Positions 10,295 through 28,565 are shown, counted from the first letter of the stretch. The stretch: DNA of 32,000 nucleotides from Candidatus Saccharimonadota bacterium (GCA_963706795.1 OY970170.1:960001-992000); one strand, 5' to 3'. Notes: a model not told the origin generated them from the sequence alone. Program-made: numbers and translations.

Positions 10295-11740
10295 TTAGTT
10301 GTCAATTGTTGCACTGCCGCTCACGACTCATCGCAGAGGACTCATGATTTTTGGTAGGGATGAAGTTGTTCCGCCAGAGCTTGTGAGCGAAGTCTTTGCT
10401 TCGATCTTTACTTCCGTAGAAGCTTCGGGAACAGGAGTTGCCCTTGGAGTAGGTGAAGTTGTTTTTGGCGGCGTAGGATTTACTGGAGTTTTTGGGGCTA
10501 CGACTTGTGGTTTTGGTTCGATAATATTGGGTGTTCTGTCGCCTTCGATCGCTTCGGCTTGTTTGGCTTCGAGGGCCTTTTTTTCTTGGGCTTGTCTGTC
10601 AGCTTCTTCTTGTTGTTTCTTCCAATTGAGATCGAAGTTGCGAACTTCTTCTTCGAGAGTGTTAATAGCTTTTTTATGTTCTTCTACACTGGTAGGATCA
10701 TTTGGCGGAGTGGTTTCTTTTGCGCGATCGAGCTCAGTTTTTTTATTCATAAGCCCCATATCATCGCGGATGCTTTGCATGAGCTCGGTTTGTTTTGTTA
10801 CTGGATCTGGAACTGTAGTGCCGTCTTTTGGAGGAGTATCCAGTGTTGCTACGTGTTCCTCAATCACGGGCGAATCAAAGAATGATTTCACTTCGTTTGG
10901 AGTAGGGAGCGAAGCCTGAATTTCTCATTGTACCTTGAGGAGGCGAGCCTTTTCTCGTGCATCGGTTTTTGCCTTTTCGTCGAGCTGTTTTTGAAGCTCA
11001 TCCATGTATACAAGATCAGCTTTGGTATTCATTCGGACAAATGCATCGTCGGCAAAGACTTTTTCGAGATTGAGTTTTTTCTTGCGCTTTTCGACAGGTG
11101 CTGGGTATTCAAAATGCTCTTCTACCATCATGTTTTCCTGTTTTGGCTGAGATTCTTCAGAATACGCGACTTCTACCGCTGTTTTGCCAGTACCAGAATA
11201 CGAGTCGATAACATCGATCGAGGATGTTGTCGGAGTTTTCTTTACTTTTACAGAAGTGCTGCGAACACCGGCCGAGAGATCACTGGTCTTAATAGTAAAG
11301 AGTGAGCTGTCGCCGAGTGGCTTGAGGATACGTGCCCAGAGTTCTCATTCTCAAAGCTCGAGATCGGTACTAGTGCTGCTTGCGACCGAGATAGTGAGTT
11401 TAGAATTCATCGCAAGTCGTACAACCGAATTATCCGTAAATACGATTTCGGCATCTGAGTTTGCTTTGGTTGTGAGCGTATCTCAGGCTTTGACGGGGCT
11501 ATTTGCAGCCGCATTTGTAGTGCCTGCAGTATTAGAAATTTCTACGGTTCCTGATGCTTTGCGAACAAATGCGATTGCATCATCATTGTTTGTTACTTGG
11601 GTCGTGTGAGTCGCACCACTGCTATTCGTGGTTGTGACCGCTACTTGTGCTGGAGAAGTCATATTTTTTTTCCAAACGTAGACGCTAACGAGTGCCACAA
11701 TAATGATCAATCCTGCAAGGAGTTTTTTGAGTGCTCACAT
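10295..11740 (-). CDS. Membrane-anchored FecR-domain protein with coiled-coil and Pro/Thr-rich tail, 481 aa, six in-frame TGA
   Basis: ORF-track pieces 11483..11710, 10925..11131 and 10328..10891 plus the untracked middle are one frame. In-frame TGA at 11735, 11483, 11351, 11345, 10925 and 10328. The N-terminal TM is LLAGLIIIVALVSVYVW. The FecR-like beta region is VRKASGTVEI..SPVKA-G-DTLTTKANSDAEIVFTDNSVVRLAMNSKLTI..LEL-G-E-G-ELWARI..FTIKTSDLSAGVRSTSVKV. Stop TAA at 10295-10297. Confidence 0.8.
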
Positions 11741-11785
11741 ATTTCGCTAAGATAACAAAAGTATTCGGCCTATTATAGCTTCAAT

Positions 11786-13789
11786 ATGCGTAGCTTCAAT
11801 ACAAAAAAATGAGTGCAGTCCTTGGCGGTGTTTATTGTGACCTTGTGACTTGGATGCATGCTGTATACAGGGCTTTTTGGTCTCATTGGGACTGACTTCA
11901 ATGCATTCTTCCTCTATAAACAATTCAGGGGGGTACCTTCGGGGAATGTGGTGATTGTAAAGATCGACAATGCCTCGCTCGATATTCTCGCGAAGTCGGA
12001 TTTGCGCATTTTGACCTTCACAAAACAGCTCTATATCGATCTCATCGATCGACTCGAAGAAGCAAAAGTACGAGCCATAGGTTTTGATCTTGTCCTTACC
12101 AATCCAGATCCCAAAGAGCAAACACTCGCTGATCTGATAAAAAAATATGGTAATATCACCATCGCGGCCAAGCTTGGTGCGGTTAATGGTGATACCGAGC
12201 GTGTACTGCCTCGAGATCTCTATAGTCGGGATAGTTGGGGAATGATCGATGTCTTTTTTGATAAAAATATTATCACAAAGATCAAGCCGCTCTATGAGCT
12301 CGATACCTCAAAGATCGAAAATATCGCGATTAAACTCTATAGATTATCGACTGGCGATACCGCGCTTGCGGGCAGCGTTCAGGATCACACATATGCCATA
12401 AATCCTCTTCGCAAACTGCCGCTTGATAGCGATGGCTTTGTACGCATCCCATTTTTTAGGAAGCCTGAAACTTTTCCGTCGATTTCGCTCGTTGATGTGT
12501 TGGATCATAAATATGATCCGAGTTTTTTTAAGGACAAAATTGTACTCGTAGGCGAGTACGGAACATTGATCCATGATGCTCATTTCTCGCCGGTGGATTT
12601 TGGTCATGCGATGCCTTGAGTTGAGTTCCATGCAAATATGCTCGAGTGACTACTCTCAGGTAAATTTTTAAATCCCATTTCGAATATAGCCTCTTGGATT
12701 TTGGCCATCTTGCTCGGATTTTGTTCGTACGTGCTTGTGGTCTATGGTCGTATAAAATGGAATGTTATCTATTTTTGTACGCTTCCTTTTATCCTCTTGA
12801 TCGTGTCATGGTATGGAATGGCCGAGGCAGGATTTATGGTGAATTTGTTTTTGCTGCTGGTCGTCTGAATTATCGCTCCGCTCGTCGTTTGAGTGCTCTA
12901 TCGATATTTTGTCGTTGATTCGATGCGACGATTTATTGCGAATGCCTTTTCGCACTATATTTCGCCTGATGTGGTAACGGAGATTGCTAATCATCCTGAG
13001 ATTTTTGCTCTCGGCGGTGAGAAGCGTGAACTCACGGTAACATTCTCAGATATTGCAGGATTTACGACAATTTCGGAGACACTTGGTACAGATCGGCTCT
13101 TCACACTTATTAGTGAATATCTCTCGGAGATGACTGATATTCTCGTTGCCAATCGTGGAACGCTCGACAAATATATTGGCGACGCGGTGATGGGATTTTA
13201 TGGAGCTCCACTTCCACTGGATCGCCCTGAATTTTTGGCCTGCAAGACCGCACTTGAACAGCAAAAGCGATTACAAATCCTCAGTAAAAAATGGGAAAGT
13301 GAAGGAATTCCAACGGTTGCAGCCCGCATCGGTATCAATCGAGGGGAAGTCATGGTCGGAAATATTGGCTCGCATGATCGTTTTAATTACACGGTCATGG
13401 GTGATAACGTAAATCTCGCTTCTCGTCTCGAATGAATCAATAAAGAATACGGAACTCTCGTCTGTATGAGCGAAGCAGTATATGACCGTGTAAGAGAAGA
13501 TTTCGTCTGCCGCCGACTCGACTGTATCCGCGTAAAATGAAAGCATGAAGCCGTTACGATCTATGAACTCATCACATTCAAATGAATGAATGACTTCGAT
13601 CCCGATATGCTTGCTAATTACGAATCCGCGCTGAACCTCTATTTTGAGGGGCAATACAAAAAAGCGCGTGAACTCTTTGCGCGTTATCCCGATGATGCTC
13701 CGTCCGCCATTATGGGAGTTCGCTGTCTCTCACTCATCGCCGGTACCACCAAGCTCGAAAACGGTATCTTTACTATGACAGAGAAGTAA
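11786..13789 (+). CDS. CHASE2 sensor domain / class III adenylate (or guanylate) cyclase, 667 aa, nine in-frame TGA
   Basis: Pieces 11858..12619, 12893..13435 and 13586..13789 plus gaps are one frame starting at ATG 11786. The CHASE2-like part has VVIVKIDNASL..AIGFDLVL..HAMP-G-VEFHANMLE-G-LL followed by 3 TM segments. The cyclase core has ELTVTFSDIAGFTTISE..KYIGDAVMGFYGAP..RIGINRGEVMVGNIGS..FNYTVMGDNVNLASRLE-G-..IRVK-G-KHEAVTIYEL. Confidence 0.85.
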
Positions 13790-13836: not shown

Positions 13837-14016
13837 GTTACAGACGTCTGAGCGGCTATCAACCGCGAGTCGAGGAAAGAACGCCCCCGCTAGTAGAATC
13901 CTCCGGTCACTCCCGTTATAGAGTCCAATCAAGTACAGCCAAGGTGGTACCTTCCTACTTCGCTCTGATGAGCTACGTAGGACCAAGGCATGAAAGTTAT
14001 TTTTCATGTCTTTTTT
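13837..14016 (+). promoter_or_regulatory. T-box-like tRNA(Ile)-sensing leader with short Stem I, upstream of yjjX-HD-ileS-tag
   Basis: Elements occur in canonical order.
- Tandem GA/GA (13850-51 / 13867-68) under a 4-bp stem (13852-55 / 13863-66).
- 7-nt loop CUAUCAA, with AUC at 13858-60 followed by A.
- Stem II GAGGA/UCCUC (13872-76 / 13899-903) with a GAA/AGUA S-turn (13879-81 / 13892-95).
- CCGUUA F-box (13913-18).
- GGUGGUACC T-box core (13943-51).
- Antiterminator helices 13938-44/13983-89 and 13953-58/13977-82.
- A terminator that competes with the antiterminator. Confidence 0.65.
13985..14016 (+). terminator. Intrinsic terminator of the leader
   Basis: AAGGCATGAAA-loop-TTTCATGTCTT followed by TTTT. 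Its 5' arm overlaps the 3' arm of the proposed antiterminator. Confidence 0.7.
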
Positions 14017-14020
14017 GTGT

Positions 14021-14569
14021 ATGCAAAACCTCCACTTTGCGCTCTGAACCACCAATGGTCCAAAGACTCAAGCGATCGAAAAAGCCCTGGGCAATTGTCC
14101 GTATTTCAAAGAATATACAATTATGGGTTACAAAGTCCCATCGGGTGTTTCGGATATGCCGCTCTCACTTCAGGAGCTTCGAGAGGGTGCAAAAAATAGA
14201 GCTCAGGCGATCATAGCTCTCGGGATCGAAGCAGATTACTACGTAGGAATGGAGGGTGGTGTATTTCCAGATCCTATTGGACCTGAGACATGGATGGCGG
14301 GTGTGATCTATATCGAGTCCGTCCATAAAGTTGGTCACTATGGATATACGACGCACATTCGAGTTCCGGACAAGATTCGAGATCGACTCTATGATGGGAG
14401 CAATGCAGATCTCGAAACCATTATGCACGAACTCGCAGGCATAGAATCCGTTGGCGAGAAAAATGGCTCATTCGGAGCATGGTCGGATGATATGATTACC
14501 CGCACTGATGCCTTCGCAAGTGCGACACAGGCGGCGCTCGCACCGTTCTTCAATAACTTTTATAAATAG
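14021..14569 (+). CDS. yjjX: Inosine/xanthosine triphosphatase-like NTPase (YjjX/DUF84 family), one in-frame TGA (14045-14047)
   Basis: Restarting at ATG 14021 gives MQNLHFAL-G-TTNGPKTQAIEKAL..VPSGVSDMPLSLQELREGAKNRAQ. This parallels E. coli YjjX (..[32 protein letters not shown], recalled). The ORF track shows only 14123..14569. Confidence 0.8.
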
Positions 14570-14570
14570 T

Positions 14571-15143
14571 ATGAAGCAATCAATCGCAAAATTCATTTTT
14601 GAGATGCAGCATCTCAAGCAGATTAAACACGAATGATGGAGAACGGTCGGCGTGCAGTTTCCTGATAGTGTGGCCGAACACTCTCTCTGTGCAGCACAGA
14701 TTGCATATATTCTCGCTCAGATGGAGTGAGTAGATCCCTGTAAAGTAACGACGATGCTTGTGTGGCATGACATGGCAGAATCTCGTATCGGAGATCTTCA
14801 TAAAATCGCTAACCATTATCTTTCTGGCAAGCAAAAAGCCGAAGATCAGGTCATGGAGGATCAAGTTGGGCATATGGATTTTGGATCGCATATCATTGAT
14901 CTTGTCCATGAATACGAAGTTCATGAGACGCTCGAATGAAAGATCGCCAAAGATGCTGACTATCTCGAACAGGCCTTCCAAGCTCGTGTTTACCAGCAAT
15001 CAGGCTACGAAGGAACTGCATTGTTCATAGAAAATGTTGGTCGAGCTCTCAAGACAGAGAGTGCACGAAGTCTATGGAGTGAAATTTCTTCAATGGATTT
15101 CTGGGAATGGTCTAAAAATTACAACTATCACCCAAAATCATAA
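14571..15143 (+). CDS. HD-domain phosphohydrolase (YfbR-like 5'-nucleotidase family, HD_3), three in-frame TGA
   Basis: MKQS..LKQIKHE-G-WRTVGVQFPDSVAEHSL..MLVWHDMAESRIGDL..KDADYLEQ gives the H..HD..D metal motif. The gene is invisible in the standard-code track apart from fragment 14754..14939. TAA at 15141-15143. Confidence 0.8.
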
Positions 15144-15171
15144 TTCTCCTCAAGATATTAATTCAAAATAT

Positions 15172-18100
15172 ATGTTCCCATCTGTAGATCCAAAACAGTC
15201 ATTTCCAGCTCTGGAAGACAACGTACTCGCATTTTGGCGAGAAAATAAAACCTTCGAAAAATCTGTCACAAGTCGTGCGGATGCGCAGGAGTTTACATTT
15301 TATGATGGGCCTCCATTTGCGACGGGGACTCCTCACTACGGTCACATCCTTGCAGGTATCCTCAAGGATGTAGTTCCACGATATTGGACGATGCAGGGTC
15401 GTCGCGTAGAGCGCAGATTTGGTTGGGATACGCACGGTCTCCCGATCGAGAATATCGTCGAGAAAAAACTCGGGATTTCTGGGAAGAAAGACATCGAAGA
15501 AAAGGTCGGAGTTTTTGCATTTAACGAAGAATGTCGCAAGAACGTCTTTACCTATGTCGATGAATGGAAAAAAGTCGTAGAACGCTCGGGTCGATGGGTC
15601 GACATGGAGAACGACTACAAGACGCTCGACTGTGATTTCATGGAATCCGTTTGGTGGGTATTTAAGACGGTGCACGACAAGGGGCTCATCTACGAGTCTC
15701 ACCGTGTTGTTCCATACTGTCCACGATGTTCGACTCCGCTTTCGAACTTTGAGGTCAATCAGGGCTACGAAAATCGTCAGGACAAAGCACTGACTGTGAA
15801 ATTTAAGCTCTTAGATCAAGAAAATACCTCCGTTCTTGCATGGACGACCACGCCTTGGACACTTCCTGCGAACCTCGGACTCGCAGTTGGTGAAGCGGTT
15901 GAATACGCAAAGATCAAGGATCATGCAACGGGAGAATTCTATATTCTCGCACATGATCGAGTAGCGACGTACTACAAAAATCCTGAACTTTTTGATCTCA
16001 TCGAAACATTCTCTGGATCTACTCTGGTAGGACTTGGATATGAGCCAGTCGCTCAGGATGTTCGTGAGCTCGATGAGGTAGTCGCTGGTGGCGATATTGC
16101 GACTTGGTACAAACCAGGCAGTAATATGTATACTGTACAGCTCGGTCATCATGTAACAACCGACTCCGGTACAGGTGTGGTTCATATTGCTCCAGCATAC
16201 GGTGAGGACGACGCAGCAATCGGGAAGCTTACGCAGATGGGATTTTATCTCCACATCGATGCAGCTGGAAAAGTCGAGCACTGCGAATTTGGAAATAGTG
16301 AATGGGTGTTTGATTTTAATCAAACTGTCATCGATCGACTCAAGGCGGCAGGGAAGATGGTGCATGTAGGAACGATCGATCATTCGTACCCACATTGTTA
16401 CCGATGCCATACTCCGCTCATCTACCGAGCGATCAGCGCATGGTATCTCAATGTTGAATCCATCCGAGAGCGCATGCTCGCTTCCAACGCGAAAACTCGT
16501 TGGGTTCCAGAAAATATCCGCGAAGGGCGATTTGGAAAATGGCTCGAGGGCGCGCGCGACTGGAATATCTCCCGTAACCGTTACTGGGGCTCTGCGATCC
16601 CAGTATGGAAGAGCGAAGATGGTGAAATCCTCGTCATCGGATCAGTCGAAGAACTCTACGAATACAACAAACCATTCGGCGATATCGAAAAGCGCGCTGA
16701 AGGATATTTCTACTCGGCAAATGGTGCAATCGGAAACGAAACGCCGATTGATATCCACAAGCACTACGTCGACAAAATCCTCCTTCAAAAGAACGGGAAA
16801 ACCTTCACACGTATCCCAGAAGTCCTCGACTGTTGGTTCGAATCTGGATCGATGCCGTATGCACAAAAGCATTATCCATTTGAGAACAAAGAAGCCTTCG
16901 AAGCGTCATTCCCTGCGGATTTCATCTGTGAAGGACTCGACCAGACACGTGGATGGTTCTATACACTCGTGGTTCTTTCAACTGCGCTCTTTGATTCGCC
17001 AGCATTCCAGAATGTCATCGTAAATGGAATCCTCCTCGCCGAAGATGGACGAAAGATGAGTAAGTCGCTCCAAAACTATCCAGATCCGATGGAGCTCTTG
17101 GGCCGCCACGGAGCAGACGCGGTTCGACTCTACCTCATGTCTTCTCCTTCTGTTCGTGCCGAAGAGCTTCGATTCTCTGAATCTGATGTCATCGAGACGG
17201 TCAAGAAGGGAATTCTCCCACTTTGGAATACTTACTCGTTCTTCACAACCTACGCGAATATCGACGGATGGAAGCCAAATACGGGTTCACTCCACTTCGT
17301 TCGACACGGAGAAACTGATGCCAATCTCGAGATGCGACTCTCAGATGGAGGAGAAAATTCTCCGCTCAATACACTCGGTCAATCACAGGCAACAGCCACT
17401 GGTAAACGCCTCGCTGAAGCAGGAACGCAGTTTGATGTGATCGTTGCATCACCGCTTGCACGGGCTCACAAAACAGCTGAGCTTATCGCGAAGGAAGTCG
17501 GATTCACAGGCGAGATCGTAACCGAAAATTGTCTCTCAGAACACTCTGCAGGATGTTATTCTGGTCGAGCATATGACGAGATCATCGAGGAACATTTCAA
17601 GGAAACAGGCGTTCGTTATGAGCGTCACGAGGTGATCTCTCAGATCGTAAAAAATCATCCAAGTTCCGAATCCAACGAAGACTTCGATGCACGCAATGCA
17701 AAATTCTACGAAGAACTCGTGGGTCGATACCCTGGGAAGAAGATCCTCGTAGTAGCCCACGGTGGAACATTCCGCTCTTGGTGCAAACATGTCTTCGGGC
17801 TCACACACGAAGCAGCGTTTACCCGAGCATATGCGATCAAAAACGCAGAATGCGTACAGCTTCCGATGGTCGTTCGCGCGAATCCGCTCGATCGATGGGT
17901 GATGGGAGAACTTCATACACTCAGTGCAAAAGTACAAGACAGTTTTGAGCGCTACGAGCTCCAGTCGGCCTCTCGTGCGATCGTAGAATTCATGGACGAT
18001 CTCACTAACTGGTATGTTCGTCGTTCACGTCGAAGATTCTGGAAGAGTGAGAGCGACTCAGACAAGGCTTCTGCATACGAGACGCTCTATACCGTGCTCA

Positions 18101-18933
18101 CAACGCTCTGCAAGATCGCAGCTCCGATCATCCCATTCGTCACTGAACACGTGTATCGCAACCTCACAGGTCACGAAAGTGTGCACCTGGAGTATTTCCC
18201 AGCGTTCGATCGTTTCGCGGTTTCTCCGCAGCTGCTTGCGGATATGAAGAAGACGAAAGAACTCGTGACTCTCGGTCTCGCGCTCCGATCACGCAAGAAA
18301 CTCCGCGTTCGTCAGCCACTCGCATCGATCACGATCGGCGAAAACCTCGACGACTACTTCCTCGAAATCCTCCGCGAAGAACTCAACGTCAAAGAAGTAA
18401 AATTCGATGACATGTCCAAACACGCGAAGCTCGTTTGTAAGCCAAACGCACGACTCATCGGACCGAAGTTCGGGAAGGAAGTACAGGCAGTGATCGTTGC
18501 CGCAAAATCTGGAAACTTCAGTTCACTCGACGATGGAAAGGTGCAGGTTGGAGCATTCGTGCTCGAAGCAGGGGAGTACGAACTCGCCTACGAGCCACTC
18601 ACCGAAGATGCAGACATCGAAGGAGGAGCAGGAATGGTCCTCATGATGGATACCCATGTAACCGATGATCTCAGACTCGAAGGATACGCCCGCGACATCG
18701 TCCGCGCGATCCAGGATCTTCGCAAAGAATCTGCCTTTGATGTATCGGATCGTATCTCGATCGGACTCATGGCGGATACAGATATCGCTCGCGCTTGCGA
18801 AATGTTCCAATCGATCATCATGAACGAAACACTCGCGACCTCTCTTCAGATGAGTGAACTCCCAGGAGCTACCGCTCGCCGTGAAGAATCCCTCGATGAT
18901 ATGAAATTTACCCTCACTATCGCTCGTGTCTAA
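15172..18933 (+). CDS. ileS: Isoleucyl-tRNA synthetase, type 2, 1253 aa, carrying an internal histidine-phosphatase domain
   Basis: FYDGPPFATGTPHYGHIL (HIGH), GRKMSKSL (KMSKS) and NWYVRRSRRRFWK. ATG 15172 was chosen because the upstream part of track ORF 15034.. overlaps the HD gene. No in-frame TGA. Confidence 0.95.
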   Translation: MFPSVDPKQSFPALEDNVLAFWRENKTFEKSVTSRADAQEFTFYDGPPFATGTPHYGHILAGILKDVVPRYWTMQGRRVERRFGWDTHGLPIENIVEKKLGISGKKDIEEKVGVFAFNEECRKNVFTYVDEWKKVVERSGRWVDMENDYKTLDCDFMESVWWVFKTVHDKGLIYESHRVVPYCPRCSTPLSNFEVNQGYENRQDKALTVKFKLLDQENTSVLAWTTTPWTLPANLGLAVGEAVEYAKIKDHATGEFYILAHDRVATYYKNPELFDLIETFSGSTLVGLGYEPVAQDVRELDEVVAGGDIATWYKPGSNMYTVQLGHHVTTDSGTGVVHIAPAYGEDDAAIGKLTQMGFYLHIDAAGKVEHCEFGNSEWVFDFNQTVIDRLKAAGKMVHVGTIDHSYPHCYRCHTPLIYRAISAWYLNVESIRERMLASNAKTRWVPENIREGRFGKWLEGARDWNISRNRYWGSAIPVWKSEDGEILVIGSVEELYEYNKPFGDIEKRAEGYFYSANGAIGNETPIDIHKHYVDKILLQKNGKTFTRIPEVLDCWFESGSMPYAQKHYPFENKEAFEASFPADFICEGLDQTRGWFYTLVVLSTALFDSPAFQNVIVNGILLAEDGRKMSKSLQNYPDPMELLGRHGADAVRLYLMSSPSVRAEELRFSESDVIETVKKGILPLWNTYSFFTTYANIDGWKPNTGSLHFVRHGETDANLEMRLSDGGENSPLNTLGQSQATATGKRLAEAGTQFDVIVASPLARAHKTAELIAKEVGFTGEIVTENCLSEHSAGCYSGRAYDEIIEEHFKETGVRYERHEVISQIVKNHPSSESNEDFDARNAKFYEELVGRYPGKKILVVAHGGTFRSWCKHVFGLTHEAAFTRAYAIKNAECVQLPMVVRANPLDRWVMGELHTLSAKVQDSFERYELQSASRAIVEFMDDLTNWYVRRSRRRFWKSESDSDKASAYETLYTVLTTLCKIAAPIIPFVTEHVYRNLTGHESVHLEYFPAFDRFAVSPQLLADMKKTKELVTLGLALRSRKKLRVRQPLASITIGENLDDYFLEILREELNVKEVKFDDMSKHAKLVCKPNARLIGPKFGKEVQAVIVAAKSGNFSSLDDGKVQVGAFVLEAGEYELAYEPLTEDADIEGGAGMVLMMDTHVTDDLRLEGYARDIVRAIQDLRKESAFDVSDRISIGLMADTDIARACEMFQSIIMNETLATSLQMSELPGATARREESLDDMKFTLTIARV
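17287..17886 (+). other. Histidine-phosphatase (PGAM/CobC/SixA superfamily) domain inserted in IleRS (about aa 706-903)
   Basis: SLHFVRHGETDAN (RHG), NTLGQSQA, ASPLARAHKTAE, CLSEHSAGCYSG and KILVVAHGGTFRSW (second catalytic His). The flanks are the IleRS segments ..LWNTYSFFTTYANID and NPLDRWVMGEL... Confidence 0.8.
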
Positions 18934-19480
18934 TCCACTCAATCGCTGCTCTTGGGTCAACAACGACCCACTCTACCAGTCATACCACGACGAAGAGTGG
19001 GGAGTTCCCGAGCATGATTCACTCGCACTTTTCGAACTCTTCTGTCTCGAAGGACAACAAGCCGGACTTTCCTGGTTCACGGTGCTCAAGCGTCGAGAGT
19101 CCATGCGACGTGTTTTCGATGGATTCGATCCCGACAAACTCGCTCGCTGGACGGATGATGACATGGCCCGAGCCCTCCTCGATCCCGGGATTATCCGACT
19201 CCCACTCAAGGTCCAAGCCGTCATCAAAAATGCCCGCGCATTCCTCACACTTCGTGATGAAGGCATCGACTTCGCCGACTATCTCTGGAGCTTTGCACCT
19301 GCTGATAAATACACCTATGCGCACGAACGCACGATCACATGTCTCGAGTCCGATGCGATGTCCAAAGCACTCAAGAAACGAGGTTTTGGATTTTGTGGCT
19401 CGACCATCTGCTACGCCTTCATGCAAGCATGCGGGATGGTGGATGATCATGGAGCAGGGTGCTTTCGATACAAGAAATAG
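18926..19480 (+). CDS. tag: DNA-3-methyladenine glycosylase I
   Basis: RCSWVNNDPLYQSYHDEEWGVPEHDS..LEGQQAGLSWFTVLKRRE..ALKKRGFGFCGSTICYAFMQACGMVDDH closely parallels E. coli Tag (recalled). The GTG start overlaps the ileS stop by 8 nt. Confidence 0.9.
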   Translation: MSNPLNRCSWVNNDPLYQSYHDEEWGVPEHDSLALFELFCLEGQQAGLSWFTVLKRRESMRRVFDGFDPDKLARWTDDDMARALLDPGIIRLPLKVQAVIKNARAFLTLRDEGIDFADYLWSFAPADKYTYAHERTITCLESDAMSKALKKRGFGFCGSTICYAFMQACGMVDDHGAGCFRYKK

Positions 19481-19522: not shown

Positions 19523-20185
19523 CTACCCCCACTTCACTTCCTTCTTGTCCCATTTCTTAAGCACTGCATTTGCCTTCGAGAAGCACTTCGATCCAAAGAA
19601 TCCCTTGTGTGCGGAGAATGGACTGGGGTGCGGAGAGCTGAGGATGACGTGTTTGTCCGCGTCGATGAGCGCAGACTTCGCGATGGCATAGTTGCCCCAG
19701 AGGATGAATACGAGGTGATCTTGCGAATCAGAAAGCTGCTTGATGACTTCATCTGTGAACGTTTCCCATCATTTCCCTTGGTGCGAGGCTGGCATTCCAG
19801 ATCTCACTGTGAGCACGCTATTTAAGAGAAGTACTCATTGTTCTGACCAGTCTGTGAGATCAGTGGCAGTGCGCGTGATACCAAGATCTTCCTTTAATTC
19901 CTTGAAAATATTTTGGAGACTTGGTTGTGCCTTAGATCCATTTGGCACGGAAAATGACAATCCCATCGCAGCTCATGGCGTGTGATATGGATCTTGTCCG
20001 AGGATGACAACGCGCACTTTCTCGGGAGGTGTGAGATCGAACGCTCGGAAGATATTTTTCCCTTCTGGGAAACAAGCAGTCGTCGAGTATTCGTTTTTTA
20101 CAAACTGGGTGAGTGTATTCCAGTATGGTTTTTCGAATTCTTCCTTGAGCAGGGAATTCCAAGATGGATGGATTCGAACGGACAT
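19523..20185 (-). CDS. ung: Uracil-DNA glycosylase (family 1), three in-frame TGA
   Basis: [51 protein letters not shown] and [16 protein letters not shown] at 19973-75, 19835-37 and 19769-71 falls on Gly of E. coli Ung (GPGQAHG, RQGVLLLN, SLGWETFT, recalled). TAG stop at 19523-25. Confidence 0.9.
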
Positions 20186-20192
20186 AGTGTGA

Positions 20193-20693
20193 TTAATCGA
20201 TCTTAATATCCCCAGCATCCACTACTTCAGCCTTGATAATCACTACATCCTCAAGTGGTCGGTCATTGCGGTTAGTAGCGACGGATTCGATGGCGTCGAC
20301 GACTTCCATGCCGGATGTGACTTTGCCAAATACTGAGTGCTTGTTATCGAGGTGGCTCGAGACGTCGGCGGCCGTGATAATAAAGAACTGGCTGCCATTT
20401 GTGTTGCGTCCGGCGTTGGCCATGGAGATCATTCCGCGAATATTTTTGAGAGAAGGATCGAATTCGTCCTTAAATGACTTTCCCCAGATACTGTCGCCAC
20501 CCATGCCGGTACCGGTTGGATCTCCGCCCTGGATCATAAATCCCTCAATTACGCGGTGGAAAATAATCCCATCATAGTAACCAGAAGCAGTGAGTCGGAC
20601 GAAGTTTTCGGTAGTGAGTGGAGTCTTCATGGTGAGCTCGAGTTCAATTACGCCGAGCGTAGTTGTAAGTCGGATTTTTGGTGCAGAAGTCAT
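20193..20693 (-). CDS. Cyclophilin-type peptidyl-prolyl cis-trans isomerase
   Basis: [52 protein letters not shown] at 20693; TAA at 20193-95. Confidence 0.9.
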
Positions 20694-21168: not shown

Positions 21169-21501
21169 TTAGACTGGCACCGCAGGATAGAGAGCTAAAA
21201 GATCAATTTCCTTCATCATATGTTCGCTCAGAGTGCGAACGGTATTGTTGGTATGGCGCAAGACTTCAGTAGCAATCCATGCAACTATAGTCACCGGAAA
21301 TTCAGAGATCTTAGCTTTTCTGTCATTTTGACTGAGCAGAGACTCCATTTGTTCGCGAACTTTGTCACTCAGCAACGGCATGAAATTACCTGGCTTATTG
21401 AGCTTGGTCGGATGAGCTATTGCGACTTGTCTGGCTATCCGTTGGACATCTTTTGGACCAAAAAAGACTGATTTTGCAGAAGTATTTTTGTTTGAAGCCA
21501 T
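21169..21501 (-). CDS. Hypothetical small protein, paralog A (110 aa)
   Basis: ATG at 21501 is preceded by AAAGGAGATATC (strong SD). TAA stop at 21169-71. Confidence 0.65.
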   Translation of the reverse strand: MASNKNTSAKSVFFGPKDVQRIARQVAIAHPTKLNKPGNFMPLLSDKVREQMESLLSQNDRKAKISEFPVTIVAWIATEVLRHTNNTVRTLSEHMMKEIDLLALYPAVPV

Positions 21502-21667
21502 GATATCTCCTTTGATTGTTGGCGATCCGATAGTAAGCATTCCGATCTATTTAGCAATCTTATTTATGAGAGTCAATGATGTAGAAATCTCATTGCATTC
21601 CCAACTCATTTCGCTATACTTCCGGCGTTTTAGATCCGCACCTTGCAAGTGCTTTATCTTTTTTTCT

Positions 21668-22765
21668 ATGCGACACCGAGAGTCTTTTTCTCTTCTGACG
21701 TTTTATAAATTCGTCGATATTTCCGAATCCGAGGCAACGCGCCTCGTCGAAGAGCAGTGGCAATTTACTCACGATCTTGGTCTCAAAGGCCGTGTCTATA
21801 TCGGTACCGAAGGTATTTCTTCGACCGTAACTGGAAACGCAGGTCAACTTTGGGCATACCGAGCATATCTCGAGTCGACTGGATTCTTCAAAGATATCCC
21901 AGATATCGATGTGAAGGCGACTCCCGTAAAAGGTCATCAATTCGAAAAAATGATCGTCAAATATCGCGAAGAAATCGTCACGATGGGCGTCAAAGTAGAA
22001 GCAAAAGAGGTTGAAAAATACCGCAAAGATATGTCGCCCGAAGAATTCAAATCACTCATTGATTCCGGAAAAACCGATGATTATGTCATCATCGACATGC
22101 GTAATGACTACGAATACCGACTCGGACATTTTAAATGAGCGATCCCAGCAGGCACGACAAACTTCCGAGAAGTCCCTAAACTCCTCGAGCGCTACAAAGA
22201 AGCAACCAAAGGTAAAAAAATCATCTGGTACTGTACTGGTGGAATCCGCTGCGAAAAAGCCGCCGTCCTCATGAACAAGGCCGGTATCGAAGATGTCTAC
22301 GCACTCGAAGGTGGTGTTGTAAAATACGTCAATACCCACAATGATGGCAATTGGCTCGGCAATCTCTATACCTTTGATGGACGTGTCTCGACTGAGGTAG
22401 GGGATAGTGTAACACATACGACCATCGGTCAGTGTCTCTATACCGACGAGCTCACCGACAACTGTGAAAACTGTCGCTACGCCCCATGCAATGCCCGACT
22501 TATCACCACTAAAAAGGCCTACAAAAAGCACATGGGATTCTGTAGTGAAGAATGCTACAAAAATGCCCGCCAAGATGGATTTATTCGTACTATGGACTGG
22601 GACTCATTCGACTACAAAGCCCTCCTTCGCAAAGCAAAAAACGAAGGACCCGAAAGTGTAAACACTACACTCCAGTACATCGCGAAACATCTCGATACTG
22701 CACTCGCTGGTGTAACATTCTGTCACGCAAAGAGCCAGAAGGAGACTGAGATTGTGGAGGCGTAA
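21668..22765 (+). CDS. trhO: Rhodanese-domain tRNA U34 hydroxylase TrhO/YceA (UPF0176), one in-frame TGA (22136-22138)
   Basis: IDMRNDYEYRLGHFK-G-AIPAG..KKIIWYCTGGIRCEKAAVLM..ALEGGVVKY plus a C-terminal Cys cluster. The pieces ending at 22138 and starting at 22271 are in one frame. Confidence 0.85.
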
Positions 22766-24477: not shown

Positions 24478-27216
24478 TTAGCGACCGTGACACTGTTTGA
24501 ATTTTTTACCACTGCCACACGGACATGGGTCGTTGCGTTTTACGTCTTTATATTCTGCTGGAAGGGCTTCAGTTGGGGTATTATTGACCCGTACTACACG
24601 GATACCGTCATCATCACGAGTGTTCTGATTTGAAGCAAAAACTGCAGGTGCTGGACTTGCGAGCATTTCGCTGTCGACTGGAGCGAAGCTGACCTCGAGG
24701 TTTTCGAGGGGGATCTCACGAGATTCGATTGGAACAAATGCTCGAGCTGAGAGAAGACCCTTTGTTACCTTATGTGCGATGGTTTCAACGAGTTCGATAA
24801 ATCGGTCGTAGGCACGTTCTTTATAGACAACGAGAGGATTTTTTTGAGCATATCCTTCGAATGCGACTTCTTCGCGGAGATGGGACATGCGGTCGATATG
24901 AGCCATCCACAGTTCGTCGATGGATGCGAGAGTGAGTGACTTCTCAAAATTTGTGAAGTCCTCGATCGAGAGCCGTTCTTTGATCGTCTCGAGACCTCAG
25001 AGGAGTGATTGCTTCACTACGAGGACGAGCATTTCAGGATCTGCATCGGTGATATATTCTTCCTTCATGACTTCGGATTCTGCAAACTCGTTTACCTTGA
25101 TAACCAAGAGTGAGAGGGGATTTGTCTCTGATTCTTTGTCGTCGAGATCGACCGAATTGACGAGCTTTTCGGCGATACCTTCCATCATCTTTTCGACTTC
25201 TTCGTGGATGTTGTTGTTTTCGAGGATGCGATTGCGGCGTCCGTACATGACGAGACGGTGCTGATTGAGGACATCGTCGTACTCAAGAATATGCTTACGC
25301 ACATCAAAGTTGCGACCTTCTACCTGTTTTTGAACAGTAGTAATACGCTTGGTGAGCATTTTAGATTCAGCGAGTGGCTCATCTGCCGGTACCGAATCAA
25401 AAATCGATGAATTAAATACTGAGAAGAGTTTATCTCCTCCAAATATTCGCATGATATCGTCGGTTGGAGCGACCATAAACTGTGAGAGTCCAGGATCTCC
25501 CTGACGTCCCGAGCGTCCACGGAGCTGATTGTCGATACGTCGTGTTTCGTGTTTTTCGGTTCCGATTACAAAGAGTCCACCGAGCTCATAGGTCTGACCT
25601 GAGAGGACGACTTCTCCTGTAAGTTTTGCAACCTCGTCAGAGATTTTGATATCTGTTCCACGTCCTGCCATATTGGTAGCAATCGTGATGGCTCCGATTT
25701 GACCGGCGTGAGAGATGACTTCGGCTTCGTTTGCATCCTGCTTTGCACTGAGGACTCGATGTGGGATATCTTGCGCCGTAAGAAGCTCAGAGAGCAGCTC
25801 AGATTTCGCAACGGAGACCGTACCTACGAGTATTGGTTGACCCTTTGTGTGGAGCTCTTTGATAAGTCGGACGAGATAGGTGTATTTTCCTTCTTCGTTT
25901 TTAAAGAGGAGATCGGCCTTGTCGCGGCGGATCATTGGGCGATTCGTAGGAATCTGGATGACTTCTAGGTGGTAGATTTTGTAGAATTCTTCTTCTTCAG
26001 TTTTAGCAGTACCCGTCATTCCAGCGAGCTTTTTGTAAAGTCGGAAATAGTTTTGGAATGTTATTGATGCAAGAGTTCGAGACTCTTGCTGGATCGTGAT
26101 TCATTCCTTGGCTTCGATCGCCTGATGAAGTCCATCAGAATATCGTCGTCCCGCAAGTACGCGGCCGGTGTGCTCATCGATGATGAGTGCCTCATCTTTG
26201 CGGATGAGATAATCGACATCGCGCTGATACACAACATTCGCCTTGAGGGCATTTTCGATATGATGAATATCGTTGTAGCTCTCAGAGGCGTAGATGTTTT
26301 CGACACCGAGCATTTTTTCGATTTCGGCGATACCGTCTTCGGTGAGGGTGGCTGTTTTTTGTTTCTCATCGATCTTGTAATGTGTCTCTATCTTGAGAAC
26401 ACGAGCCATTTCAGCGAACTTCAAATATTTAGAAGTCGGCTCACTGTCAGGTGCAGAAATAATGAGTGGAGTTCGAGCTTCGTCTACGAGAATCGAGTCT
26501 ACTTCGTCTATGATCGCAAAGAAGAGTGGTCCCATCGAGCGTCGCTCGACTGAGGTCACCATATTATCTCGGAGATAATCAAATCCGAGTTCATTGTTCG
26601 TCGCGTAAACGACATCTCGACGGTAGTTTTCTTGCTTTTGAGCAGGGGATTGGCCGTGTACAACAATACCTACGGAGAGTCCGAGTGTATTATAGATGAT
26701 TCCCATTTCCATGGCATCACGACTCGCGAGGTAGTCATTGACGGTTACAACATGTACTGGATATCCAGCAAGTGCATTGAGAGAAGCAGCGATAGTAGCG
26801 ACGAGAGTCTTTCCTTCTCCGGTTTTCATTTCGGAGATATTTCCGCCATGGAGCGTGAGCGCACCTAAAAGCTGAACATCGTAGGGAATCATATTCCATA
26901 CAACACTATGACCATCCTCGAGGACAAATTCTTGGCCAGCAATAATGCGACATGCAGTTCGGTGAAGCGCAAAAGCCTCGTGCTTTACGCTTTCGAGGCG
27001 ACGTTTGATCTCTTTGAGATCTTCGGGATTTCGGATATCGAGCCCAACAAATTCGGCCTTGAGTTTTGCGGTATATGCCTGCACAGCCTCAACGGTCGTG
27101 ATTTCAGAAGCAAATCGTGCTTCGATTTCACGAATACGATCGAGCTCCTTTTGGTAACTACGAAGACGCTTCTCCCCGGGATCACCGAAGAGCGCTTTTA
27201 AAAGAGAAGAAATCAT
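24478..27216 (-). CDS. secA: Preprotein translocase ATPase SecA, 912 aa, two in-frame TGA (26101-03, 24997-99)
   Basis: The three track pieces are one frame (2739 nt). [44 protein letters not shown] matches E. coli ..[37 protein letters not shown] (recalled). C-terminal Zn motif CPCGSGKKFKQCHG. Confidence 0.95.
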
Positions 27217-27230
27217 TCCTGGGTTGGGTA

Positions 27231-28565
27231 CTATTTGCTGCTAAAAAAACTATCTACTACTTTGCGGTATGCGAGTCGTGTCTTGATGTCCTCGTAATAC
27301 GTATCACCTGGAACGAGTTTTTCTTTGAGACGCTTCACAACATCTGCATTCTGGTATTGAGCAAGAATACCATTGATTTCCATCTGAATTTCTTCATTAG
27401 AAGCTTCTACACCTCGGATGTCTCGAACCTTTTTGAGGATGAGTTCTGCAGCAACACGGCGACGAGCTTCTTTTTGGATAACTTCGTTCTTGTATTGTGT
27501 TTCATCCATCTTCATGTGCTCGAGGTAGGCCTTCATATTGTAGCCCTGACCTTCGAGGTTAGATTTTTGTTCATTGTAGATAGCCTCAGCTTCGCGTCCA
27601 ACGAGGTTTTCACCCACTTCGTATGTAGCGATGGCTTCGAGTTCTGTGAGGAGCTTCCCTTCGTCTTCTTCACGAGCACGACGCTCTTTTTCTCCGAGAA
27701 TTTCCTTCTCAAGAATATCCTTAAATCCAGCCATATCCGTCTTTACACCACGAAGTTTCTCAATGAAATCTGGAGTCCATTCTGGAGTGTGTGGTTTTTC
27801 AACCTTTTCGATCTGAGATACAAAATATACCTTTCGCTTCTTAAAAGCTTCAGAGTGGTAATCCTCAGGGAAAGTAATGTCGAATTCTACGGTTTCTCCT
27901 ACCTTTGCACCTACGAGTTTCTCCTCAAATCCAGGAATAAACTGAGCGCTTCCGATAACGAGTGGGAAATTCTGAACCTTTGTCTCAGGAATCGCGTCAC
28001 CACCCTTTTTGTCATAACCTTGTGTACTGAGTGTGACACGGTCATTTGTTTCGATTGCAGTCTTTGATGCGTCAAAACCATCATCATGGCTGTGACCTGC
28101 TTCATGAAAATGCGTAAATCGCTTGTTGATATCGGCGATTGCGTCTTCAACTTCTGACTTTTCAACTTTTACAGTTGTCTTTTTAATCGTGATTTTATCG
28201 AGCTTCTTCATATCGAGTTCGATCTCTGGAAGCACTTCGATCTCGAGAGTGATCTCGATAGGTGAGAGTGACTTCATATCAGTAACTACTCCAGCGGCGA
28301 TCGGAGTGATCTGTGCCTTGTCGAGCATTTCTGAATAATTTTTGTCGAGGTAATAGTTGATCGCACGCTCGTCGATTGCGGCCTGACCGAACTCCTTGAT
28401 CACAATAGCTTCAGGAATCTGAGCACCCTTTCGGAAACCCTTGATTTCTGCATTTTTACCAAGATTGGCAATAACGCTCGCTCGAGCTTTGTCGAATTCT
28501 TTAGCGTTGTCGGTAATAGTGAGACTTACTTTCGATCCTGGGATCTTTTTGACTTCTACTTTCAT
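27231..28565 (-). CDS. tig: Trigger factor
   Basis: MKVEVKKIPGSKVSLTI.., an FKBP-like middle region (VTLSTQGYDKKGG..FPLVIGSAQFIPGFEEKLVG) and a helical C-terminal domain. ATG at 28565; TAG at 27231-33. Confidence 0.9.
   Translation of the reverse strand: MKVEVKKIPGSKVSLTITDNAKEFDKARASVIANLGKNAEIKGFRKGAQIPEAIVIKEFGQAAIDERAINYYLDKNYSEMLDKAQITPIAAGVVTDMKSLSPIEITLEIEVLPEIELDMKKLDKITIKKTTVKVEKSEVEDAIADINKRFTHFHEAGHSHDDGFDASKTAIETNDRVTLSTQGYDKKGGDAIPETKVQNFPLVIGSAQFIPGFEEKLVGAKVGETVEFDITFPEDYHSEAFKKRKVYFVSQIEKVEKPHTPEWTPDFIEKLRGVKTDMAGFKDILEKEILGEKERRAREEDEGKLLTELEAIATYEVGENLVGREAEAIYNEQKSNLEGQGYNMKAYLEHMKMDETQYKNEVIQKEARRRVAAELILKKVRDIRGVEASNEEIQMEINGILAQYQNADVVKRLKEKLVPGDTYYEDIKTRLAYRKVVDSFFSSK

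Follow-up and report, generated by a model that had tools for sequence, protein, structure and literature searches.

A histidine-phosphatase domain nested within the isoleucyl-tRNA synthetase of Gracilibacteria and related bacteria

We analyzed a 32,000-nucleotide (nt) stretch of DNA (OY970170.1:960001-992000, assembly GCA_963706795.1, Candidatus Saccharimonadota bacterium), referred to below as the window, for its ileS gene, which encodes a type-2 isoleucyl-tRNA synthetase (IleRS) that hosts a nested histidine-phosphatase domain. The gene occupies 15172..18933 on the plus strand. It lies in a continuous open reading frame (ORF; 15034-18933, plus strand), in which alignment with homologs identifies ATG 15172 as the start codon; the product has 1253 amino acids (aa), followed by the stop codon. 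The reading frame was checked through the whole gene and contained no in-frame TGA, TAA or TAG. A first-pass annotation, made from the sequence alone, had proposed an intact histidine-phosphatase domain at roughly residues 706-903 of this protein and had taken the uninterrupted frame to indicate a domain insertion rather than two adjacent genes. Both proposals are borne out, the boundaries being confirmed and the same architecture recurring in other genomes.

TGA is a sense codon in the window (genetic code 25). Reading it as a stop fragments many genes and read-through restores them; there are, for example, two in-frame TGA codons in SecA and nine in the gene at 11756-13789. The names attached to homologs are Candidatus Gracilibacteria, Altimarinota, Peribacteria and 'Patescibacteria group'. 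The codon usage and the homolog names together indicate that the window comes from a Gracilibacteria-class bacterium, in keeping with an initial guess of Gracilibacteria/SR1.

The first 705 residues of the protein (15172..17286) comprise the Rossmann catalytic body, the CP1 editing domain and the anticodon-binding domain's first helix; Pfam tRNA-synt_1 matches aa 18-666. The HIGH motif is present as HYGH (nt 15334-15345), the editing motif WTTTPWTLP lies at nt 15841-15867, HIAPAYGEDD is likewise present, and KMSKS lies at nt 17053-17067. The helix segment immediately 5' of the insert, LWNTYSFF (17221..17244), contains N686 and F690. The nested domain, a His_Phos_1 domain of branch 1 (17287..17880, aa 706-903), is followed by the rest of the anticodon-binding helical domain (17881..18363, aa 904-1064, with Pfam Anticodon_1 at aa 907-1050), where RRSRRRFW (nt 18019-18042) contains R953, and by the type-2 C-terminal domain DUF5915 (PF19302; 18364..18930, aa 1065-1253), matched at 116.4 bits over aa 1065-1252. 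All of these features are on the plus strand. The NCBIfam ileS model TIGR00392 scores the whole protein at 916.8 bits against a cut-off of 621.4, while the protein falls below the cut-offs of the mupirocin-resistance IleRS models MupA (715.9 versus 1900) and MupB (686.5 versus 1900) and of the ileS_w_GNAT model NF040702 (308.6 bits versus 1999). The best PDB sequence matches of the synthetase were the bacterial type-2 enzymes of P. megaterium (PmIleRS2; 8C8U/8C8W) and T. thermophilus (1ILE), which the whole window synthetase resembles in its HIGH, KMSKS and CP1 editing motifs, its helical anticodon-binding domain and its DUF5915. PmIleRS2 differs in having a linker of five residues where the window protein has a 198-aa enzyme domain. 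Judging from the intact motifs, the conserved anticodon-contact residues and the strong purifying selection described below, the window enzyme probably charges tRNAIle.

The insert starts at aa 706 (SLHF..., nt 17287), and NPLDRW resumes the synthetase at aa 904 (nt 17881); the span of 17287-17886 given in the first-pass annotation was therefore correct at its start and ran two residues past the domain end at 17880. A search against Pfam His_Phos_1 (PF00300), as had been proposed there, matched aa 707-896 at 128.9 bits (gathering score 21.7; E value 2.5e-37) and covered profile positions 1-178 of 194, with the catalytic residues retained. The four signatures that had been read by eye were all located in this domain: VRHGET (aa 710-715, nt 17299-17316), which bears R711 and H712; SPLARA (aa 760-765, nt 17449-17466), which bears R764; SEHSAG (aa 789-794, nt 17536-17553), which bears E790; and VVAHGGTFR (aa 860-868, nt 17749-17775), which bears H863. 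The branch-1 catalytic core is thus complete, with the His and Arg of RHG, the second Arg, the Glu, the second His and the Asn of RHGxxxxN, and R711, H712, N718, R764, E790 and H863 were invariant in ortholog sets of 74, 51 and 63 sequences. When the window was compared with the ortholog at locus L003, the ratio dN/dS was 0.059 in the insert and 0.059 in the catalytic body, and it was low over both junction regions as well. The insert is a complete histidine-phosphatase domain and is apparently active.

An AF2 model of the insert domain had a pLDDT of 94.1 and a pTM of 0.90. Foldseek assigned this model the fold of the cofactor-dependent phosphoglycerate mutases (dPGMs) with probability 1.00 and TM-scores of 0.69-0.75 to PGAM1, BPGM, TIGAR and iPSP, the highest, about 0.75, being to PGAM1 and BPGM. 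By root-mean-square deviation (rmsd) the closest fits were to small branch-1 phosphatases at 2.7-3.1 A, the tightest being 4ij6 (2.7 A) and 9mmh (3.1 A). PhoE (1EBB/1H2E), iPSP/PspA (4IJ6), CobC (3HJG, 6E4B) and HFP (9MMH) share with the insert a size of about 200 aa, the fold and the arrangement RHG...R...E...H; these phosphatases are free-standing, whereas the window domain is nested, and it reached the cut-off of none of their equivalog models. The CobC equivalog TIGR03162 gave 88.5-93.4 bits against 162.9, and the PspA and dPGM models scored below it and also missed their cut-offs. The closest sequence and structure neighbors overall were dPGM, PhoE, iPSP, CobC, HFP and TIGAR.

Because the top PDB sequence matches are dPGMs (1fzt at 52 bits, and PGAM1) and the top TM-scores belong to PGAM1 and BPGM, we considered whether the insert might be a dPGM fused to IleRS, or else a catalytically dead structural or tRNA-binding module; both ideas are very unlikely. 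The dPGM/BPGM group (1FZT; PGAM1, 1YFK) gives the best sequence and Foldseek E values and shares RHGE(S/T)xxN, GES...R and HG..R with the insert. However, the dPGM models fail (NF002339, 63.9 bits versus 316; NF038349, 63.5 versus 225; TIGR01258, pgm_1, 47.9 versus 81.7). The substrate-binding motifs of dPGMs are ERHYG and HGN; the window protein has SEHSAG and HGG at these positions, the LNERYYG of 1fzt being aligned to LSEHSAG, and so is without the Arg and Tyr of the first motif and the Asn of the second. Most of glycolysis, or the whole pathway, is reported to be missing from Gracilibacteria (PMC8406219). A glycolytic mutase was rejected on the strength of the model scores, the missing substrate-binding residues and the reported absence of the pathway, and a dead module is difficult to reconcile with six catalytic residues that are invariant over more than 100 species. 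We also considered E833, R841 and R868 as specificity residues and set them aside, since the 1fzt alignment shows them to be part of GES...R and HG..R, motifs general to the dPGM-like subfamily. A part in anti-phage defense was likewise dropped, as no PADLOC-DB family matched either the insert or the full-length protein with E <= 0.01.

The insert had first been placed between the catalytic body and the anticodon-binding domain, at a point where canonical type-2 enzymes were described as having only a short linker. Alignment to the type-2 structure confirms the linker: the PmIleRS2 alignment splits at the insert, with Q601-703 of the window protein pairing with Pm566-664 and Q902-1052 with Pm670-819, and therefore the five-residue linker there (664-670) is replaced here by 198 residues. 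In the 46 insert-less relatives the linker at the same site is 1-12 aa. The position relative to the anticodon-binding domain holds by Pfam borders and is slightly off by structural ones. The structure-based borders of this domain in yeast IleRS are residues 644-816 (PMC7955072), and Q691 of the window IleRS aligns to yeast Sc665; the insertion therefore lies inside the anticodon-binding domain, in the loop into which the domain's first long helix leads. On that helix, N686 and F690 align to N647 and F651 of PmIleRS2, and R953 aligns to R721; in PmIleRS2, N647 and F651 together with R721 are reported to recognize anticodon bases A35/U36 (bioRxiv 10.64898/2026.02.03.703510). All three positions are conserved, and the LWNTYSFF segment is invariant or nearly so among 51 homologs. 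In an AF2 model of residues 561-1253 pLDDT was above 90 along both connectors, which suggests that the attachment of the insert to IleRS is fixed and not floppy.

This location would suit a tRNA-directed phosphatase, one that would strip tRNAIle of a 3'- or 2'-phosphate, or of one derived from a 2',3'-cyclic phosphate, before or during charging, for example after cleavage in the anticodon loop or at the CCA end. The insertion is 15-19 residues past N686 and F690, the counterparts of the A35/U36 readers, the short and confidently modelled connectors suggest a fixed pose on the anticodon-binding domain, and the fusion is specific to IleRS among the Pfam-scanned long protein matches. We nevertheless regard such a role as improbable. 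The insert is not basic (net charge -5 in the window; family mean about 0, median pI 7.1), and with a net charge near zero or negative an RNA-binding surface found no support. To our knowledge, no member of the histidine-phosphatase superfamily is an RNA-end phosphatase, which also counts against this role.

The L003 locus comes from an independent Logan assembly and encodes a 93%-identical ortholog of 1253 aa with the same downstream genes; the exact sequence of the window IleRS had no record in the contig index. Among the top 120 protein matches the length of the linker at the insertion site is bimodal, at 185-206 aa in 74 and 1-12 aa in 46. A scan of GTDB with one genome per species, using the flanking peptide FFTTYANI, gave 296 stretches, and the insert was confirmed in 108; 80 were retained, all of which span the full query. 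The search of other genomes that had been suggested at the outset thus found at least 108 species-representative genomes, from Gracilibacteria, Peribacteria and Altimarinus, with the insert at the same site; the closed chromosome CP060226.1 is among them, as is the oral strain GN02-873. That the window is of metagenomic origin could in principle point to an assembly or gene-calling artefact in which a chimeric contig joined two genes. This is almost certainly not the explanation, since the insert is found at the same residue in the 93%-identical assembly, in 74 of the 120 best protein matches and in 108 genomes including a closed chromosome, and the frame is continuous with a low dN/dS across both junction regions. 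A chimeric assembly was rejected on the same independent assembly and genomes.

Pairwise distances in the insert and in the body were correlated (Mantel r = 0.73; 0 of 999 permutations as high). A Neighbor Joining tree computed on columns of the body alone has the insert in most of its deep branches, and the insert-less clades are nested within insert-bearing ones. The simplest reading of these sequences is one old acquisition followed by vertical descent and several clean excisions. Since the excised forms keep all synthetase features, the insert would be an accessory that is not required for charging tRNAIle, and its repeated clean loss is a further point against a tRNA-directed role. We consider it highly probable that the insert is an intact, selected, vertically inherited and rigidly nested histidine-phosphatase domain with which the synthetase can dispense.

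In a search of 1.84 billion representative proteins, the long matches that were scanned with Pfam gave no other host, each being an IleRS or a fragment of one. Outside IleRS, the insert's nearest relatives were free-standing tandem double His_Phos_1 proteins of about 420 aa. The possibility that these are fragments of IleRS genes split at TGA was rejected on P0133, a genuine stand-alone gene with fmt (methionyl-tRNA formyltransferase) on one side and a ketopantoate reductase gene on the other; the tandem His_Phos_1 gene at locus L001 (1183-2475) has these two neighbors. The architecture is common in public data, where the insert-bearing proteins go by no other name than 'isoleucine--tRNA ligase' or 'class I tRNA ligase family protein'. 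Many of the public translations (P0091, P0100, P0017 and others) have Trp at a conserved Gly, as in DQTRWWFY for DQTRGWFY, because TGA was evidently read as Trp (code 4) and not as Gly (code 25).

We rebuilt 63 complete ileS genes with code 25, whose products range from 1223 to 2165 aa. All extra segments of at least 70 aa in these genes lie at four positions and come from three hydrolase families, with none unclassified: Nudix at Q216, the CP core/CP1 junction (19 genes); His_Phos_1 at Q510 in CP3 (10 genes); a Ser hydrolase with or without His_Phos_1 at about Q575 (18 genes); and His_Phos_1 at Q704 (63 genes). The Ser_hydrolase domain, with or without further His_Phos_1 copies, is nested before or after the RIPEVLDCWFESG segment. 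In 28 of the 63 genes, including the window type, the Q704 domain is the only one, and the other 35 nest more domains at the three other loops, so that a relative's IleRS may carry up to five nested hydrolase domains and up to four phosphatase copies in one polypeptide. The catalytic set is retained in 88 of 88 phosphatase copies and the full Nudix box in 19 of 19 Nudix inserts, for which the best-scoring model is MutT. Additional intact phosphatase copies in the CP3 and Rossmann loops, far from the anticodon site, are hard to explain by a tRNA-directed role, and the co-nested Nudix and esterase domains point to small molecules instead.

In the truncated gene at L064 (about 250-700), a GNAT acetyltransferase domain is nested at about Q575, and the phosphatase is present as well, at the same site as in the window. 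The curated NF040702 model, ileS_w_GNAT, is a precedent for an extra enzyme domain in IleRS, although of a different domain family, and NCBIfam has no curated model for a phosphatase-bearing IleRS. A broader version of the tRNA-directed role would have the phosphatase heal damaged tRNAIle ends or junctions beside the A35/U36-reading helix and form, together with the Nudix, esterase and GNAT domains, a repair machine for tRNA and by-products. We judge this decidedly improbable, more so than simple phosphate removal from tRNAIle; if true, it would be the first aminoacyl-tRNA synthetase (aaRS) with built-in RNA-end healing.

A partial precedent for the combination of domains is mycobacterial MutT1, which has a Nudix domain and an RHG histidine-phosphatase domain and whose substrates are 8-oxo-(d)GTP and diadenosine polyphosphates (PMC11784022). 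MutT1 joins a MutT-like Nudix domain and His_Phos_1 in one polypeptide, and relatives of the window IleRS carry both. It differs in being a two-domain, stand-alone protein without a synthetase, while the window protein itself has no Nudix domain; the NCBIfam model for MutT1 was touched only by a relative's second phosphatase domain, at 17 bits versus 475. The appendages of eukaryotic aaRSs are another point of comparison, and they are mostly non-catalytic. The INS subdomain of IleRS ARD2 is a lineage-variable tRNA-binding element of about 80 aa that has been gained and lost (bioRxiv 10.64898/2026.02.03.703510). Like the window insert, INS and the eukaryotic appendages are lineage-variable additions in the tRNA-binding half that are gained and lost; unlike them, the inserts of the Gracilibacteria-type IleRS are complete hydrolase enzymes.

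Two genes lie immediately upstream of ileS in the window, both on the plus strand. The first (14003..14569) encodes a YjjX-type inosine/xanthosine triphosphatase (NTPase_I-T; PF01931, 115.7 bits), has one in-frame TGA, and matches NF003459 at 93.4 bits, under the equivalog cut-off. The second (14571..15143; 190 aa in code-25 translation) encodes an HD_3 phosphohydrolase of the YfbR-like 5'-deoxynucleotidase superfamily (Pfam HD_3, 93.6 bits; YfbR-like, 32 bits). It begins 2 nt past the NTPase stop codon and ends 28 nt 5' of the ileS start, and is missing from table-11 ORF lists because it contains three in-frame TGA codons. Locus L009 has a 74% identical HD_3 copy at the corresponding place.

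Among related loci, the families found upstream of ileS on the same strand were NTPase_I-T (22), Nudix (13), Ser_hydrolase (9), HAD (6) and MazG (4), and an unbiased clustering of upstream ORFs also ranks the NTPase first. In seven insert-less loci the same-strand upstream genes include Nudix, NTPase_I-T, MazG, Ham1, CYTH, HAD, Ser_hydrolase, GNAT and dNK. Clusters of small hydrolase genes 5' of insert-less ileS were seen at L084 (1822-5949), L086 (2272-5993) and, upstream of 6001, at L087, L088 and L090; their members are of the Nudix, NTPase_I-T, MazG, CYTH, HAD and Ser_hydrolase families, with GNAT in addition. Families nested in some IleRSs (Nudix, Ser hydrolase and GNAT) are therefore free-standing upstream of ileS in others, and the remaining upstream neighbors belong to the classic 'house-cleaning' hydrolases of nucleotides. 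Neither within 6 kb of these ileS genes nor anywhere in the 32-kb window was there a free-standing His_Phos_1 gene, and no kinase or two-component partner is conserved near ileS in the related loci. A HAD phosphatase gene is upstream in 3 of 7 insert-less and 4 of 45 insert-bearing loci (Fisher p = 0.043, uncorrected for relatedness), which is only a hint that HAD may stand in for the missing insert, two of the three loci being close relatives. The neighboring nucleoside triphosphate (NTP) hydrolases, like the co-nested domains, point to small molecules and away from tRNA.

The best explanation as a whole, toward which we lean slightly, is that the insert is an IleRS-tethered accessory phosphatase acting on a nucleotide-type small molecule. 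The phosphatase, about 198 aa long and of the small PhoE/PspA/CobC kind, is nested in a surface loop and tethered by short, well-ordered connectors; it would hydrolyze phosphomonoesters by way of phospho-His712. Together with the MutT-like Nudix, the serine hydrolase, extra phosphatase copies and the YjjX, HD, MazG, Ham1, CYTH and HAD enzymes as further modules, it would make up a nucleotide clean-up set that this lineage keeps joined to IleRS, either physically or genetically. A plausible step would be the removal of phosphate after the NTP and nucleoside diphosphate hydrolases have acted, or from by-products of adenylate chemistry. That the insert is an active accessory enzyme is suggested by the retained catalytic residues, purifying selection like that on the core, co-evolution with the body and the clean excisions. 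The weakest step is the substrate class; for a nucleotide-type small molecule we would put the chance at just short of even. Three roles had been offered in the first-pass annotation, and of these the hydrolysis of a nucleotide by-product is now better supported than the repair of tRNA ends, because of the neighboring genes and the co-nested domains.

Several observations weigh against a nucleotide-directed accessory phosphatase. The insertion follows the helix with the anticodon-contact residues, which would fit a tRNA-directed role too. Amino-acid divergence in the insert is about twice that of the body, and there is little conservation in the E790-E833 region, the cap over the active site of this fold; there is therefore no obvious specificity pocket shared across the family. 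Free-standing and nested forms of the Nudix and Ser-hydrolase domains are only about 30% identical and some loci have both, and therefore neither operon capture nor strict complementarity is established. A conserved neighborhood in a small genome can reflect co-expression and not shared chemistry. Finally, the histidine-phosphatase domain of MutT1 is reported in later work to be tied to protein dephosphorylation and not to nucleotides (PMC11784022, PMC12407098).

This last point bears on a regulatory phosphoprotein phosphatase of the SixA, PGAM5 or MutT1 C-terminal-domain type, which would act on a phosphohistidine or other phospho-residue of a partner or of IleRS itself. The branch-1 family does include protein phosphatases, and both PGAM5 and SixA match the insert weakly. 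We consider this role unlikely: the SixA equivalog TIGR00249 gave 31.6 bits versus 74.5 and covered the N-terminal third only, the PGAM5 matches were marginal, and the nearest neighbors in sequence and structure are small-molecule enzymes. Up to four phosphatase copies per polypeptide would be odd for a specific regulator, and a conserved kinase or two-component partner nearby is missing.

The variable cap region could also mean a drifting or broad specificity, as might be expected of an ordinary metabolic phosphatase (phosphoserine, ribazole or riboflavin-precursor type) that has no chemical tie to IleRS and is nested only in order to be expressed and kept, its host in the streamlined genome being an essential, constitutively expressed gene. 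Among family models the highest-scoring are generic (CobC, 88-93 bits) and all under their cut-offs, the structural neighbors include 4ij6, a phosphoserine phosphatase, and 9mmh, an HFP of the riboflavin pathway, and the clean losses show independence from aminoacylation. However, this explanation, which we hold to be rather unlikely, does not account for hosting by IleRS only, for the repeated nesting of a few families (three hydrolase families, and one GNAT in L064) at four loops, or for the position of un-nested members of these families just 5' of ileS.

Catalytic domains added to aaRSs are usually discussed as a eukaryotic feature, and bacterial synthetases are regarded as lean. The first-pass annotation knew of no described aaRS with an internal PGAM-type phosphatase, and full-text literature searches, which did not reach subscription-only papers, found no description of an aaRS, IleRS included, into which a histidine phosphatase, Nudix or esterase domain is inserted. 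A survey of IleRS domain evolution makes no mention of a phosphatase or Nudix insert (bioRxiv 10.64898/2026.02.03.703510). Both component families are known and the combination is new. An essential bacterial synthetase hosts a full hydrolase in its surface loops, under strong selection, in more than 100 uncultivated species with tiny genomes. If the modules act on nucleotides or adenylate by-products, the charging of tRNA and the cleaning of the nucleotide pool would be physically linked in organisms obliged to scavenge nucleotides from hosts. The family also provides a natural map of four loops of a class Ia synthetase that tolerate whole-domain insertion, and a natural experiment in the gain and clean loss of nested domains. 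It serves as a warning that the label 'isoleucine--tRNA ligase' can conceal multi-enzyme proteins of up to 2165 aa.

Some further features of these loci were noted. A gene for DNA-3-methyladenine glycosylase I (Tag; 18926-19480, plus strand) overlaps the ileS stop codon by 8 nt, and the gene that follows (19523-20221, minus strand) is a uracil-DNA glycosylase as read from its translation; both are kept in L003 and L004. The window genes that are split in table-11 lists and whole on TGA read-through include those for SecA, a CHASE2-type adenylate cyclase and a TrhO-like rhodanese protein, and examples of such spans are 24478-27240 (minus strand), 11756-13789 (plus strand) and 21191-22765 (plus strand). 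The minus strand at 10295-11746 encodes a 483-aa protein that is membrane-anchored and has a high content of Thr, Ser, Pro, Glu and Lys; it lies in a region where the AT skew is strong (-0.34) and long spurious ORFs occur on both strands. A conserved protein of about 80 aa, acidic and without a Pfam match, is encoded just 5' of ileS in 16 loci (L084, 3146-3391; L085, 5722-5967; L082, 3558-3788; and 13 others) and is absent from the window.

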